Shown here: positions 21,795-24,796 of the stretch, piece by piece
Layout of the letters: every line of letters starts with the position of its first letter
Position numbering within the stretch: position 1 is the stretch's first letter
Program-made: the position numbers and the translations under genes
The notes under the pieces: model-generated
Databases searched by the model: none
The model's input: the letters and a program-made list of their open reading frames with translations, nothing else
What the model was told of the DNA's origin: nothing
NCBI RefSeq assembly: GCF_003334355.1
Contig: NZ_QOWP01000003.1
From: Escherichia coli
Lineage (GTDB): Bacteria > Pseudomonadota > Gammaproteobacteria > Enterobacterales > Enterobacteriaceae
Strand: one strand, 5' to 3'
Length of the DNA: 64,000 nucleotides

Positions 21795-22553
21795 ATGAGC
21801 CTGACCCTCACGCTCACCGGCACCGGCGGCGCACAGGGCGTTCCGGCATGGGGCTGCGAGTGTGCGGCCTGCGCCAGAGCGCGGCGCTCGCCGCAGTATC
21901 GCCGCCAACCGTGCAGCGGCGTAGTGAAGTTTAACGACGCAATCACCCTGATCGACGCCGGGCTGCACGATCTCGCCGATCGCTGGTCGCCCGGATCGTT
22001 CCAGCAGTTTTTGCTGACGCATTATCATATGGATCACGTCCAGGGGCTGTTTCCGCTGCGCTGGGGCGTTGGCGATCCGATCCCGGTTTACGGCCCGCCG
22101 GATGAACAGGGCTGCGACGATCTGTTTAAACATCCGGGCCTGCTTGATTTCAGCCACACGGTGGAACCGTTTGTGGTGTTTGATTTGCAGGGGTTACAGG
22201 TCACGCCCCTGCCGCTCAACCACTCAAAACTGACCTTCGGTTATCTGCTGGAAACGGCACACAGCCGGGTGGCGTGGCTGTCTGACACCGCAGGCTTGCC
22301 GGAAAAAACGCTGAAATTTTTACGCAATAATCAGCCGCAGGTAATGGTGATGGATTGCAGTCACCCGCCGCGCGCGGATGCACCGCGTAATCACTGTGAT
22401 TTAAATACCGTGCTTGCGCTGAATCAGGTTATCCGCTCGCCACGGGTGATTCTGACCCATATCAGCCACCAGTTTGATGCGTGGCTGATGGAAAACGCAC
22501 TACCGTCAGGGTTTGAGGTGGGGTTTGATGGGATGGAGATTGGGGTGGCGTGA
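21795..22553 (+). CDS. phnP: Phosphoribosyl cyclic phosphodiesterase PhnP (metallo-beta-lactamase fold)
   Basis: 252 aa; HYHMDH metal-binding motif. Confidence 0.92.
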
Positions 22554-22554
22554 T

Positions 22555-22690
22555 GAGAGGGAATGTGCGCGCTGGCCCCCTCACCCTAACCCTCTCCCCA
22601 GAGGGGCGAGGGGACCGATTGTGCTCGATATTGAATATTGCGCTCGTTTTCTCCCTCTCCCCATTGGGGTGAGGGGCGATGCCTGCTCCA
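22555..22690. repeat. Two GC-rich imperfect palindromic elements (cccctcaccc...ggggtgagggg type), box C-like
   Basis: ccctcaccctaaccctctccccagaggggcgaggggacc and ctccctctccccattggggtgaggggcg read directly; family assignment is from memory and uncertain. Confidence 0.5.
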
Positions 22691-22699
22691 TACCCAACC

Positions 22700-23029
22700 T
22701 CATCGCCCATACTCATCTTCCATTCTCCGCTCTTCATCCTCCAGTTGCCGACGCTCCTGATCAAGCTGGCGCTGGCGATCGTCCAGCTGCCTGCGGCGAT
22801 CTTCAAACTGGCGGCGGCGGTCGTCATATTGTCTGCGCCGATCGTCGCTCACTTCACGCTGCCAGCCGTCGTCGCGCGAATCTTCATAGTCTCGCCCACG
22901 GTCAGGGTTATAAGCGTCATTAATCGCCTGCTGAATATTGCCAATGGTGTCGTCGATAATATCGGCCTGGGCCGGAACGGTGGACAGCGTGAGCAGGGTG
23001 AATAAAAGAAATAGCGGAAAGCGTTTCAT
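22700..23029 (-). CDS. yjdP: Secreted, highly charged repeat protein YjdP
   Basis: 109 aa; signal peptide MKRFPLFLLFTLLTLSTVPAQA then Arg/Asp/Gln-rich decapeptide-like repeats (DDRRRQYDDRRRQFEDRRRQLDDRQRQLD). Confidence 0.85.
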   Translation of the reverse strand: MKRFPLFLLFTLLTLSTVPAQADIIDDTIGNIQQAINDAYNPDRGRDYEDSRDDGWQREVSDDRRRQYDDRRRQFEDRRRQLDDRQRQLDQERRQLEDEERRMEDEYGR

Positions 23030-23097
23030 TAGCCAACCTCAAAAAGAAACTCTATCCACATTAATCATTACTCATCCATGCAAGTAGTGGATGAATC

Positions 23098-23547
23098 TCA
23101 ATTTCTCCGCTGCTCTATTGCCGTAATCGCCTCCACGCGTTGTTGATGACGACCGCCTTCGTACTGTGCGCCCAGCCACGCATCCACAATCATTTTTGCC
23201 AGTTCGAGGCCAACCACTCGTGAACCAAAAGCCAGCACGTTGGTGTCGTTATGCTGCCGCGAAAGTTGCGCGGAATAAGGTTCGCTACAGACGACCGCGC
23301 GAATTCCGGCAAACTTGTTCGCCGCTATCGAAATACCGACGCCAGTACCACAAATCAAAATCCCGCCATCAACCTCTCCGCCAGCAACAGCCAGTGCGAC
23401 TTGACTGGCGTAATGTGGATAATCAGTACGCTCTGACGACCAGGTTCCTTTATCAATCACTTCAACGCCACGCTCAACTAAATGTGCCACTATTTCATGT
23501 TTTAAAATGAAACCGACATGATCACAGCCAAATGCAATCTTTTTCAT
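23098..23547 (-). CDS. rpiB: Ribose-5-phosphate isomerase B / allose-6-phosphate isomerase
   Basis: 149 aa MKKIAFGCDHVGFILKHEIVAHLVERGVEVIDKG; RpiB/LacAB family. Confidence 0.95.
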   Translation of the reverse strand: MKKIAFGCDHVGFILKHEIVAHLVERGVEVIDKGTWSSERTDYPHYASQVALAVAGGEVDGGILICGTGVGISIAANKFAGIRAVVCSEPYSAQLSRQHNDTNVLAFGSRVVGLELAKMIVDAWLGAQYEGGRHQQRVEAITAIEQRRN

Positions 23548-23905
23548 TCATCTTCCCCGTCCGTGCAAAACTTCACAATCAAAAAACATTTGTGATGTTA
23601 ATGAATTAAAAACACCCAAAATCGATGAATTACGCCTTCCTGATCTGTTTTACAGAGTTACATCTGACAGCGCAATAGCGTTAAAGACACTCACCATCCA
23701 GCAACATCTATCATCTAAAAAACCAGAAAAACAAATAACATCATGTTTTTAAACTAATTAAATGAAATAAAATTTTAAGCCACTCGCCATTGTTCACAAT
23801 AAAATAAACTTTATAAATTTTATTTTTTTGTGAAGTCGCCAGCATCTTTTCTGTTCTTGCTGTGGTGATATAGTGGCGTCTTCAATTCAAGGACAAGAGA
23901 ACGTG

Positions 23906-24796
23906 ATGAGCCAGTCAGAGTTTGATTCAGCGCTTCCGAACGGTATAGGGTTAGCGCCTTACCTGCGAATGAAGCAGGAAGGAATGACAGAAAATGAAAG
24001 CCGCATCGTGGAGTGGTTACTCAAACCCGGTAACCTGAGTTGTGCACCCGCAATTAAAGATGTCGCAGAAGCTCTGGCGGTATCTGAAGCGATGATAGTT
24101 AAGGTATCAAAGCTGCTGGGGTTTAGCGGCTTTCGTAACTTACGCAGTGCGCTGGAAGATTATTTTTCTCAGTCAGAACAGGTATTGCCTTCCGAGTTGG
24201 CTTTTGATGAAGCGCCGCAGGATGTGGTGAATAAGGTATTTAACATCACTTTACGCACCATTATGGAAGGTCAGTCGATCGTCAACGTTGATGAGATCCA
24301 CCGTGCCGCCCGCTTTTTCTATCAGGCCAGACAGCGGGATTTGTACGGTGCCGGAGGATCAAATGCTATCTGTGCTGATGTACAGCACAAGTTCTTGCGC
24401 ATTGGCGTACGCTGTCAGGCCTATCCTGATGCTCACATCATGATGATGTCCGCTTCGTTGTTACAGGAAGGAGATGTTGTGCTGGTAGTGACCCATTCCG
24501 GGCGAACCAGTGATGTAAAAGCGGCCGTAGAACTGGCAAAAAAGAACGGGGCAAAGATTATTTGTATAACCCATAGCTACCATTCACCGATAGCGAAACT
24601 GGCCGATTATATTATTTGCTCACCAGCCCCGGAAACGCCGTTATTAGGTCGTAATGCCTCGGCAAGAATATTACAACTAACTTTGCTGGACGCTTTTTTT
24701 GTCTCTGTCGCCCAGCTCAACATTGAACAAGCTAATATTAATATGCAAAAAACCGGCGCAATTGTTGATTTCTTCTCACCAGGCGCGCTGAAATAA
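23906..24796 (+). CDS. alsR: RpiR-family transcriptional repressor of rpiB/als operon
   Basis: 296 aa from MSQSEFDSALPNG; HTH plus SIS domain; ORF-track start 23873 is an upstream extension. Confidence 0.9.
   Translation: MSQSEFDSALPNGIGLAPYLRMKQEGMTENESRIVEWLLKPGNLSCAPAIKDVAEALAVSEAMIVKVSKLLGFSGFRNLRSALEDYFSQSEQVLPSELAFDEAPQDVVNKVFNITLRTIMEGQSIVNVDEIHRAARFFYQARQRDLYGAGGSNAICADVQHKFLRIGVRCQAYPDAHIMMMSASLLQEGDVVLVVTHSGRTSDVKAAVELAKKNGAKIICITHSYHSPIAKLADYIICSPAPETPLLGRNASARILQLTLLDAFFVSVAQLNIEQANINMQKTGAIVDFFSPGALK

Follow-up and report, generated by a model that had tools for sequence, protein, structure and literature searches.

The window, a 64,000-nt stretch of Escherichia coli DNA, carries yjdP on the minus strand, between rpiB, which lies upstream on the same strand, and phnP (21795-22553, plus strand), with which yjdP is convergent. 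The coding sequence, the segments of its product, and the adjoining elements are as follows.

22700-23029, minus strand: yjdP coding sequence, 109 codons plus the stop codon at 22700-22702, with an ATG start (from the list of open reading frames)
22964-23029, minus strand: signal peptide MKRFPLFLLFTLLTLSTVPAQA, residues 1-22, with predicted cleavage before D23 (n, h, and c regions and A-x-A, by inspection)
22907-22963, minus strand: amphipathic N-terminal helix of the mature protein, DIIDDTIGNIQQAINDAYN, residues 23-41, a conserved block in alignment A3
22847-22906, minus strand: acidic variable linker PDRGRDYEDSRDDGWQREVS, residues 42-61, net charge -3
22703-22846, minus strand: heptad-repeat helix, residues 62-109 (DDRRRQY DDRRRQF EDRRRQL DDRQRQL DQERRQL EDEERRM EDEYGR), delimited by lag-7 identity and a 21-nt period
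23037-23040, minus strand: Shine-Dalgarno sequence GAGG, 7 nt 5' of the ATG, read directly from the sequence
22554-22699, no strand assigned: phnP-yjdP convergent intergenic region, with two G-rich hairpin repeat copies at 22577-22613 and 22653-22676

The earlier note on this DNA had called the gene yjdP, and the identification was correct. The ATG-started, 109-amino-acid open reading frame on the minus strand is 100% identical in DNA sequence to the yjdP gene annotated as "DDRRRQL repeat protein YjdP" in RefSeq E. coli genomes, and its product matched NCBIfam model NF041443 over model positions 1 to 101 of 101 (147.9 bits against a cutoff of 90; E = 8.9e-44). PF28054 is recorded in precomputed Pfam assignments on all 120 of the YjdP homologs listed. 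The gene was matched in 5405 of 5426 complete E. coli genomes, and homologs with a common architecture occur across the Enterobacteriaceae (Citrobacter, Trabulsiella, Cronobacter, Buttiauxella, Entomohabitans, Klebsiella, and Salmonella). Alignment A3, with 17 members from several genera, has three segments (a signal peptide, an A-D-I-I-D-D...IQQAINDAY helix, and DDRRRQL-type heptads), and all three are present in the window protein, which is a K-12-type member of the NF041443/PF28054 family with no substantive difference. At most of the loci compared with it, the Shine-Dalgarno sequence reads GAGG or GAGA. yjdP is a real gene, is expressed, and is nearly universal in E. coli.

RefSeq, NCBIfam, and Pfam entries already cover the gene, its signal peptide, and its DDRRRQL repeat; the earlier finding as stated adds nothing new. 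The family name describes the sequence and carries no function. In the searchable literature we found no study devoted to yjdP and no phenotype, partner, or localization data for its product, so the earlier remark that no function is known still holds. A Pfam-A scan, using a release that predates YjdP's own entry, gave nothing significant at E <= 0.001 (best i-Evalue 0.048, to DUF7900). An Rfam scan of 22000-24000 and a PDB sequence search with mature YjdP, both at E <= 1, gave no match. Weak NCBIfam matches to FlbB, RNase Y, HmpF, and MutS2, and the names "Skp family chaperone," "colicin uptake," and "RuvC/YqgF nuclease" given to homologs by JGI, were rejected as compositional resemblance to charged helices.

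Segments of YjdP and the heptad repeat

By inspection, the N terminus (MKR, a hydrophobic core FPLFLLFTLLTLSTV, and PAQA followed by D) has the pattern of a classical Sec signal peptide, with the positively charged n-region, the hydrophobic core of 10 to 15 residues, and the small residues at -3 and -1 that mark Sec substrates cleaved by signal peptidase I. YjdP contains no cysteine, hence no lipobox, and so is not a lipoprotein. The earlier description of a secreted protein with a clear signal peptide fits these features: the sequence looks exported. A-x-A followed by D or N is kept in all homologs in A3, and the hydrophobic core drifts (dN/dS of 0.3 to 0.6). We infer that YjdP reaches the periplasm and that cleavage follows Ala22, which would give a mature N terminus of DIIDD.

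The mature protein has 87 amino acids and is acidic (calculated pI, 4.6; net charge, -8). The earlier note had described it as almost entirely Arg, Asp, Glu, and Gln. This is true of residues 62-109, in which these four make up 83%, but they account for 67% of the mature protein and 46% of residues 23-61, where the conserved amphipathic helix DIIDDTIGNIQQAINDAY lies. Residues 23-41 form the most conserved block outside the repeat in A3, with hydrophobic residues (I25, I29, I32, I36, and A39) at a spacing of 4-3-4-3; AlphaFold2 predicted this block to be helical at low confidence (pLDDT of 58 to 66). The linker is the most variable segment of the mature protein in A3. In the AlphaFold2 model residues 41-52 are nonhelical, and pLDDT falls below 50 at residues 45-47.

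The peptide DDRRRQYDDRRRQFEDRRRQLDDRQRQLDQERRQLEDEERR had been quoted exactly, as residues 62-102, but its unit had been called decapeptide-like, and it in fact recurs every 7 residues (21 nt). Identity was found in 26 of 41 residue pairs at lag 7, versus 7.7 ± 2.3 in composition-preserving shuffles (z = 7.9; reached in 0 of 5000 shuffles). At lag 10 there was a single identical pair (z = -2.7). The DNA is repetitive, as had been said: Tandem Repeats Finder reported a period of 21 with 3.5 copies and 75% matches at 22774-22846, and a second repeat search found one direct-repeat family with 21-nt spacing within yjdP. The 48-residue segment thus amounts to about 6.7 heptads of DDRRRQL. One hydrophobic residue occurs at every seventh position (Y, F, L, L, L, M, conserved across genera), and the resulting stripe turns by about 20 degrees per heptad. 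Among charged pairs in residues 62-109, 18 are of opposite sign versus 1 of the same sign at i+3, and likewise at i+4. The repeat is close to neutral (+16/-17); 55% of the residues of the mature protein are charged, and GRAVY is -2.28.

That repeat number might differ between strains had been anticipated, and it does, between species as well. Lengths of 109, 102, 97-100, and 123 amino acids were seen, the last in E. albertii. The 102-amino-acid allele is an exact 21-nt deletion (one heptad fewer), and the 123-amino-acid allele has two heptads more. K-12 has the 109-amino-acid allele and many E. coli strains carry the 102-amino-acid allele; both are common, judged by database cluster sizes. Because length changes in exact heptads, the helical register is preserved, which implies that it matters.

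Compared with Citrobacter, dN/dS was about 0.01 in the repeat and 0.05 to 0.08 over the whole gene. Among Escherichia, Citrobacter, and Trabulsiella the repeat is conserved position by position, with 3.5 to 6 nonsynonymous changes in 48 codons (dN of 0.03 to 0.05) and saturated synonymous sites; the hydrophobic series Y, F, L, L, L, M is preserved, as are the D/E/Q substitutions. Cronobacter and Buttiauxella retain the core motif RRQL-D/E-x-R-x-RQLD. By these sequence comparisons, the repeat is under very strong purifying selection, and few parts of the gene are as tightly constrained. Such selection points to a specific structure or interface rather than to a loose polyampholyte; the earlier suggestion of a generic polyampholyte or a nucleic-acid- or ion-binding protein finds no support in position-specific conservation of this degree.

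AlphaFold2 modeled residues 53-108 as a single continuous helix (pLDDT of 88 to 97) in a model with no compact fold (pTM, 0.36). The helix would be about 7 nm long if the model holds. Modeled as a linker-fused tandem "dimer," the protein gave a pTM of 0.44 and a helix pLDDT of 76 to 91, versus 88 to 97 for the monomer, with no improvement in confidence and no confident pairing; a Foldseek search of this tandem model against the PDB gave no match.

Two kinds of known helix invite comparison. Like the single-alpha-helix (SAH), or ER-K, domains of myosin VI, myosin X, and caldesmon, YjdP has a long predicted helix without tertiary contacts, dense opposite charges at i+3 and i+4 over at least 30 residues, and high helix confidence together with low pTM. 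SAH domains use Glu, Lys, and Arg, whereas YjdP uses Asp and Arg, and Asp forms helices less readily than does the Glu that characterizes SAH domains. SAH domains also lack a periodic hydrophobic residue, whereas YjdP has one at strictly every seventh position, a seam of the kind that the definition of an SAH excludes. To our knowledge, all known SAH domains are cytoplasmic and eukaryotic, unlike YjdP, which is bacterial and predicted to be exported. With parallel leucine zippers YjdP shares the 7-residue period and a core position occupied by Leu, Phe, Tyr, or Met. A register with L at d puts D at e and R at g, an arrangement that favors parallel pairing; attractive e/g pairing is classic for parallel dimers. 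YjdP differs from these coiled coils in that position a would be Arg in every heptad, leaving no canonical a/d hydrophobic seam. On the model, the helix may be a salt-bridge-stabilized rod, present as a single helix or in a weak parallel pairing through its Leu stripe.

The upstream block and the expression of yjdP

Three further features lie upstream of yjdP.

23086-23101, minus strand: conserved block TTGAGATTCATCCACT (16 nt), found in upstream alignments, which holds an RcsB-type box, TGAGATTCATCCAC, at 23100-23087 and overlaps the rpiB stop codon (23100-23098)
23058-23063, minus strand: predicted -10 element TAATGT (family consensus TAnnnT), with T1, A2, and T6 invariant across genera
near 23051, minus strand: predicted transcription start, placed by analogy with rprA and corresponding to about 4,313,846 in MG1655

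The block was kept in all ten genera compared. Alignments A1 and A2 covered E. coli, other Escherichia, Citrobacter, Trabulsiella, Cronobacter, Buttiauxella, Entomohabitans, and Klebsiella sp.; Salmonella and K. pneumoniae were read directly. The sequence 5' of the block cannot be aligned, and the 5' edge of the block is abrupt and coincides with the point at which genomes diverge in their upstream gene (rpiB, a hybrid histidine kinase, or none). It was the sole match in the 64-kb window to the block consensus of the yjdP family (0.08 expected). The RcsB consensus, TN(G/A)GAN4TC(T/C)NA, comes from crystallographic and electrophoretic mobility shift assay (EMSA) work (PMC7913699). The yjdP box agrees with it at 7 of the 8 specified positions, the last A being C in all species, and the core differs between genera at R, Y, and N positions only. 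Chance alone would produce a bare match to this degenerate core roughly every 4 kb on each strand. One exact match to the strict consensus was found in the window, at 61157-61170, and was treated as noise because 2.1 were expected by chance.

The region resembles the rprA promoter in the box itself (TGAGATTCATCCAC in yjdP and TGAGACGAATCTGA in rprA), in the abutment of the box on a weak -35, and in a spacing of 37 nt between the initial T of the box and that of the -10 in both genes; the rprA +1 was taken as the annotated 5' end of the RNA. The same 37-nt spacing also fits osmB and bdm. The boxes differ at the final consensus base, which is C in yjdP, A in rprA, and G in the bona fide boxes of osmB and bdm. 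RcsB homodimer sites usually lie just upstream of the -35 (PMC5651002), and, given the start site placed above, the yjdP box is immediately upstream of the -35. A scan with the sigma-70 consensus found no promoter upstream of yjdP, which is compatible with activator dependence but does not prove it. yjdP would thus have its own promoter, with an RcsB-homodimer-type box centered near -42.5, directly upstream of a weak -35, in the rprA geometry. The conserved motif suggests that yjdP is switched on by the Rcs envelope-stress system, and, by sequence and by analogy with rprA, we infer that Rcs control is direct. From a promoter of this type, YjdP would be made when the Rcs phosphorelay is active. 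In the searchable literature we found no report of rcsB dependence, an RcsB footprint, or start-site data for yjdP.

The earlier note had held that lack of expression in any condition would count against the gene. Published transcriptome sequencing (RNA-seq) data already answer this point: yjdP mRNA rose from about 10.6 to 100-112 normalized units, or 9.5- to 10.6-fold, upon inhibition of LolCDE (PMC5105897). Genes induced together with yjdP by the inhibitor include osmB, bdm, wca, yjbEFGH, rcsA, ivy, and mliC (PMC5105897). yjdP shares this induction with the genes that have RcsB-homodimer promoters (rprA, osmB, bdm/osmC). The response also includes Cpx- and RpoS-controlled genes, and the induction of yjdP is therefore not specific to one regulator. 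The same induction table contains spy and cpxP (PMC5105897). Like Spy, CpxP, and ZraP, YjdP is small, predicted to be exported and helical, and strongly induced by envelope stress. It differs from them in having no sequence relationship to them, in lacking LTXXQ motifs (the Spy/CpxP/ZraP LTXXQ models gave no match in the Pfam-A scan at E <= 0.001), and in being acidic.

Readings of YjdP function

The explanation that we favor, and consider reasonably probable, is that YjdP is a genuine exported heptad-helix protein with its own RcsB-type promoter and with a specific partner or the capacity for self-assembly. It would act through that partner or assembly and not as a nonspecific polyampholyte. 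Our best guess at its role is that of an Rcs-induced periplasmic envelope-stress protein, protective or structural. A bolder form of this reading, which we regard as quite unlikely, makes YjdP a direct RcsB-activated effector whose salt-bridge-stabilized helix of about 7 nm serves as a rigid periplasmic rod, the first bacterial exported counterpart of an SAH or one-stripe zipper. If that were true, the rod could be a spacer or a ruler; alternatively, under envelope stress, it could specifically trap a cationic attacker, such as lysozyme or an antimicrobial peptide, by electrostatic attraction. Whole-heptad alleles would then tune the length of the rod. The natural alleles of 97-100, 102, 109, and 123 amino acids are a ready length series for this model. 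YjdP is one of the remaining uncharacterized y-genes of E. coli, and the promoter block, the repeat constraint, and the allele series make it more tractable. The sharply delimited, RcsB-box-like block offers a cheap experiment and a condition for a phenotype search, and a repeat so constrained is better explained by a specific structural role than by a filler polyampholyte. Should the Rcs link be borne out, YjdP would be one more of the small envelope proteins induced by Rcs.

A generic periplasmic polyampholyte or hydrophilin, acting by bulk charge and hydration (ion buffering, or osmotic or desiccation protection) with no defined structure or partner, is unlikely. Such a protein would have the charge content, hydropathy, and balanced repeat charge of YjdP and a model with no compact fold, and it would fit the coinduction of yjdP with the osmotic and desiccation genes osmB, osmY, and otsBA and the colanic acid genes (PMC5105897). 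However, constraint on composition alone would mean quick drift, and the repeat is instead conserved position by position, with low dN at saturated dS, and changes length by exact heptads. There is a distinct, though minor, chance that the upstream block is bound by some regulator besides the RcsB homodimer (another NarL/FixJ protein or an RcsB heterodimer), or that LolCDE inhibition induces yjdP through RpoS or Cpx. The box is one base off the RcsB consensus in all species, that consensus is degenerate (its strict form matched the window no more often than chance would allow), and the inhibitor response spans several regulons. In addition, overexpression of CsiR lowers yjdP expression 3.5-fold, and a ChIP peak lies nearby (PMC5217608). 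Against these points stand the confinement of core variation to positions at which the consensus is degenerate, a geometry identical to that of the crystallographically defined rprA site, and, by eye, the absence of Cpx-type (GTAAA-N5-GTAAA) and sigma-E-type motifs from the conserved 70 nt. That the open reading frame is a spurious, untranslated product of repetitive DNA is hardly credible. The repeat does open long reading frames in other registers and on the opposite strand, such as one of 108 amino acids at 22679-23005 on the plus strand, and we retrieved no proteomic evidence for YjdP, but selection is frame specific (dN/dS of 0.05 to 0.08 overall), the Shine-Dalgarno sequence and signal peptide are conserved, the mRNA is regulated, and the gene is nearly universal in E. 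coli with homologs across the Enterobacteriaceae.

We also consider it very improbable that yjdP is tied to its neighbors in function, whether by ending the rpiB (allose/ribose-5-phosphate) transcript as its last gene or by belonging to the phosphonate (phn) system. The rpiB stop codon is separated from the yjdP start, which is on the same strand, by 68 nt that contain no terminator-like site; a terminator scan gave only plus-strand matches inside the repeat, which were taken as artifacts. The PRECISE iModulon study lists yjdP with rpiB under a Crp-related module, which suggests that read-through from rpiB dominates in unstressed K-12, and in K-12 such read-through probably adds to transcription from the gene's own promoter. 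However, outside Escherichia only a few Citrobacter and Klebsiella have rpiB upstream of yjdP. In the others yjdP is preceded by a hybrid histidine kinase gene, by an unrelated gene, or by a long intergenic gap, and the promoter block is retained. In favor of a tie to phn, the 3' end of the phn operon adjoins yjdP in Escherichia, Citrobacter, Trabulsiella, and Buttiauxella. The earlier placement of yjdP next to phnP is physically correct, but the genes converge and so share no transcript. Phosphate limitation, which had been proposed as a condition on the strength of that position, is unsupported: yjdP converges on phnP, has a predicted conserved promoter of its own, and has no Pho-box-like site nearby (scan with <= 3 mismatches, a weak test because it also missed the promoter of the phn operon itself). 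Moreover, YjdP appears to be exported, whereas RpiB and PhnP are cytoplasmic enzymes.

The intergenic region in which the two genes converge is a known site of HPGQ elements, which have been listed between yjdP and phnP (PMC5100583). As RNA, the hairpin region has a folding energy of -65.6 kcal/mol (z = -2.6). It lies outside the protein and is likely a terminator or an mRNA 3' end. The hairpin region is absent from CFT073 and other genomes, in which the stop codons of yjdP and phnP are 27 nt apart.

Identity and conservation of yjdP

yjdP starts with ATG and has 109 codons on the minus strand (window 22700-23029); a Shine-Dalgarno sequence, GAGG, lies 7 nt 5' of the ATG. The same DNA is found in E. 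coli K-12 and many other strains, and RefSeq names it "yjdP: DDRRRQL repeat protein YjdP" (MG1655 locus b4487). The protein matched the full NCBIfam equivalog model NF041443 (DDRRRQL_YjdP) with 147.9 bits against a cutoff of 90, and Pfam PF28054 ("YjdP") is present on every database homolog; our Pfam-A scan, which used a library version older than PF28054, gave no significant match. Because these RefSeq, NF041443, and PF28054 entries exist, the gene and motif described in the earlier note were already catalogued. That description was largely right and the feature is real, except for the repeat unit and the association with phn genes.

yjdP is a real gene, with a match in 5405 of 5426 complete E. 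coli genomes. Comparison with the Citrobacter and Trabulsiella orthologs gave saturation at synonymous sites (dS >1.7) and an overall dN of 0.10 to 0.20; in the repeat segment dN is just 0.03 to 0.05, for a dN/dS of ~0.01. The fastest-evolving segment is the signal peptide (ratio, 0.3 to 0.6), as is usual for signal peptides. The three-part architecture is kept in homologs from Escherichia, Shigella, Citrobacter, Trabulsiella, Cronobacter dublinensis, Buttiauxella, Entomohabitans, Klebsiella, and Salmonella. yjdP mRNA has been detected by RNA-seq, and a LolCDE inhibitor induced it 9.5- to 10.6-fold (PMC5105897). Long ORFs in other frames or on the opposite strand, such as 22679-23005 (+), were rejected as by-products of the repeat. 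In the clinical E. coli strain FLI21, an IS1 insertion splits yjdP (locus L033, 501-1606), and therefore the gene is dispensable in at least that background.

yjdP is an ordinary y-gene, known and named before this analysis along with its repeat. What the analysis adds is a conserved RcsB-type promoter block, a dN/dS result, and natural alleles that differ in heptad number; these are useful and can be tested but are not a discovery.

The predicted heptad helix and the N-terminal segments

This conserved, expressed gene encodes a signal peptide, an amphipathic helix, an acidic linker, and, in the AlphaFold2 model, a ~7-nm helix of charged heptads. The repeat peptide quoted earlier was exact (residues 62 to 102), but the unit of ~10 residues assigned to it was wrong; the period is 7. 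The heptad periodicity far exceeds chance: of 41 residue pairs spaced 7 apart, 26 are the same, where shuffled sequences gave 7.7 ± 2.3 (z = 7.9). At lag 10 there is just 1 identical pair (z = −2.7). Tandem Repeats Finder gave a 21-nt period at 22774-22846 (3.5 copies, 75% matches), with which repeat family D1 from a separate repeat search agrees. The successive heptads are as follows:

DDRRRQY / DDRRRQF / EDRRRQL / DDRQRQL / DQERRQL / EDEERRM / EDEYGR

The statement that the protein is almost entirely R, D, E, and Q holds for the C-terminal 48 residues (83%) but not for residues 23 to 61 (46%).

Repeat number varies, as had been predicted, though modestly and by whole heptads each time. The common E. 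coli alleles encode 109 and 102 amino acids, the latter being an exact 21-nt deletion between GAYCGCCGC direct repeats; E. albertii YjdP has 123 amino acids, with two additional heptads, and forms of 97 to 100 amino acids are rare. Because gains and losses come in whole heptads, helical register is preserved. Purifying selection on the helix is extreme; such strong, position-by-position conservation speaks against the earlier suggestion of a polyampholyte or an ion- or nucleic acid-binding protein.

AlphaFold2, run with a 17-sequence alignment, predicted a single continuous helix at residues 53 to 108 (pLDDT 88 to 97), a low-confidence N-terminal part, and no compact fold (pTM 0.36). At both i+3 and i+4, 18 of the 19 charged pairs in the repeat have opposite signs. 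Opposite charges 3 or 4 residues apart are the hallmark of salt-bridge-stabilized single alpha-helices, which YjdP resembles in this respect; it differs from them in having a conserved hydrophobic residue at each seventh position. The hydrophobic residues form a single stripe that turns ~20 degrees per heptad. With Leu placed at d, position e is Asp and g is Arg, which favors parallel pairing, but position a would be Arg, and so the repeat does not form a canonical coiled-coil pattern. Confidence was no higher for a tandem model fused by a linker (pTM 0.44; helix pLDDT 76 to 91), which had no Foldseek match in the PDB; a PDB sequence search with mature YjdP (E up to 1) found no related solved structure. 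Tentatively, the helix might be a rigid rod that either binds a specific partner or self-associates via its one stripe of Leu; a second contact surface might be the amphipathic helix near the N terminus.

Within residues 23 to 61, the acidic linker comes after that conserved amphipathic helix, DIIDDTIGNIQQAINDAY, whose hydrophobic residues have 4-3-4-3 spacing. By inspection, the N terminus resembles a Sec/SPase I signal peptide in form: MKR, FPLFLLFTLLTLSTV, and PAQA, with D next. YjdP is not a lipoprotein because it has no cysteine. Homologs retain A-x-A followed by D or N, and the hydrophobic core drifts. A second length polymorphism lies in the signal-peptide region, window 22964-23029 (−). 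K-12 has two imperfect copies of a 9-nt unit, TTCACGCTG; E. coli AVS0753, AVS0972, and C8 have 4 to 6 perfect tandem copies, giving a hydrophobic core of (FTL)n and proteins of 118 to 121 amino acids. The expansions in these yjdP loci are as follows:

L030, 593-637
L040, 336-389
L041, 336-371

A conserved upstream block and candidate control by RcsB

The alignment of DNA upstream of yjdP covered Escherichia, Citrobacter, Trabulsiella, Cronobacter, Buttiauxella, Entomohabitans, and a Klebsiella sp.; for Salmonella and K. pneumoniae, the sequences were compared by direct reading. There is no alignment 5' of about −72 from the ATG and abrupt conservation thereafter. The block has the consensus TTG(A/G)GA(A/T)T(C/T)(C/A)TC(C/T)(G/A)CT, with an invariant TAnnnT ~20 nt further 3'. 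In the window:

23101-23086, conserved block TTGAGATTCATCCACT, with the rpiB stop codon inside
23063-23058, putative −10 (TAATGT)

TTGAGATTCATCCACT is the sole match to the family consensus in 64 kb (chance expectation, 0.08).

The RcsB homodimer box, TN(G/A)GAN4TC(T/C)NA, was defined from crystal structures and EMSA (PMC7913699). The block core, TGAGATTCATCCAC, matches it at 7 of 8 specified positions and varies across genera at R, Y, and N positions only. The final consensus A is replaced by C in every species compared; the accepted E. coli boxes of osmB and bdm/osmC likewise lack this A. From the first T of the box to the first T of the putative −10 is 37 nt, the same geometry as in MG1655 rprA: there, precisely 37 nt separate the co-crystallized box, TGAGACGAATCTGA, from the −10 TACTAT, and the annotated RNA 5' end comes 12 nt further on. 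By analogy, yjdP transcription would start near 23051, placing the box center near −42.5, abutting a weak −35 (TACTTG); RcsB homodimer sites usually lie directly against the −35 (PMC5651002).

An RcsB-type promoter is consistent with the co-induction of yjdP with osmB, bdm, wca, yjbEFGH, rcsA, ivy, and mliC by the LolCDE inhibitor (PMC5105897), but that response takes in Cpx and RpoS genes too, and a bare match to the degenerate RcsB core is frequent by chance. We infer that yjdP is a candidate direct RcsB target. With moderate confidence, envelope stress would lead RcsB~P to activate yjdP transcription, and the product would be exported to the periplasm.

In K-12, rpiB and yjdP are 68 nt apart, and a terminator scan found nothing terminator-like between them; yjdP is also tabulated with rpiB under a Crp-related iModulon; read-through from rpiB probably adds to yjdP expression in unstressed K-12 cells. 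The strict RcsB consensus has one exact match in the window, TTAGATAAATCTTA at 61157-61170 (+), in the intergenic gap just past the start codon (61099) of ORF 59504-61099 (−); it is probably noise, since about 2 such matches are expected by chance. In E. coli, a small inverted repeat, CATCCA-N8-TGGATG at 23073-23092 (−), overlaps the 3' part of the RcsB-like box and the predicted −35/spacer; other genera do not conserve it.

Chromosomal neighborhood

yjdP keeps the same chromosomal neighborhood in all the genera compared: in Escherichia, Citrobacter, Trabulsiella, and Buttiauxella it adjoins the phn operon at the 3' end of the latter, and in Cronobacter and Entomohabitans it is near yjdM. Upstream of it, Escherichia and some Citrobacter and Klebsiella have rpiB; O157:H7, many Citrobacter, and K. 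pneumoniae have a hybrid histidine kinase gene; and elsewhere the DNA is unrelated. Because phnP is convergent with yjdP and the upstream gene changes, yjdP has no conserved operon partner; the proposed phn association was mistaken, and the phosphate-limitation lead is unsupported. A scan run without a working positive control found no Pho-box-like site near yjdP.

In K-12, rpiB is accompanied by allose genes; the kinase in O157:H7, many Citrobacter, and K. pneumoniae is the OI-167 hybrid histidine kinase. In several cases the TGA stop of the upstream gene lies within TTGAGA of the promoter block (window 23098-23101; loci L032, about 1960-2030, L004, and L044), and therefore the boundary of the variable segment coincides with where the yjdP promoter begins. 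The surroundings resemble an island insertion hotspot. In some Salmonella enterica (L042/L043), yjdP is truncated, ending after about residue 40, and JetD/SbcC-like (Wadjet-type) genes come next. In Cronobacter dublinensis (L023) it is flanked by an HSP90-like ATPase gene and a 771-amino-acid gene with no Pfam match, with a dynamin-like gene ~2 kb downstream, and in a Klebsiella sp. (L028) two CBRB-domain genes separate it from the phn genes.

The convergent phnP-yjdP gap (22554-22699) is filled by two G-rich hairpin repeats, CCCTCTCCCC...GGGGxGAGGGG:

22577-22613, G-rich hairpin repeat
22653-22676, G-rich hairpin repeat

They are missing from the gap in CFT073 and many others, where the stop codons are 27 nt apart. 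These repeats are the "HPGQ" G-quadruplex/hairpin elements of PMC5100583, and the repeat is present elsewhere too, at several other sites in each genome (median, 3 matching places).
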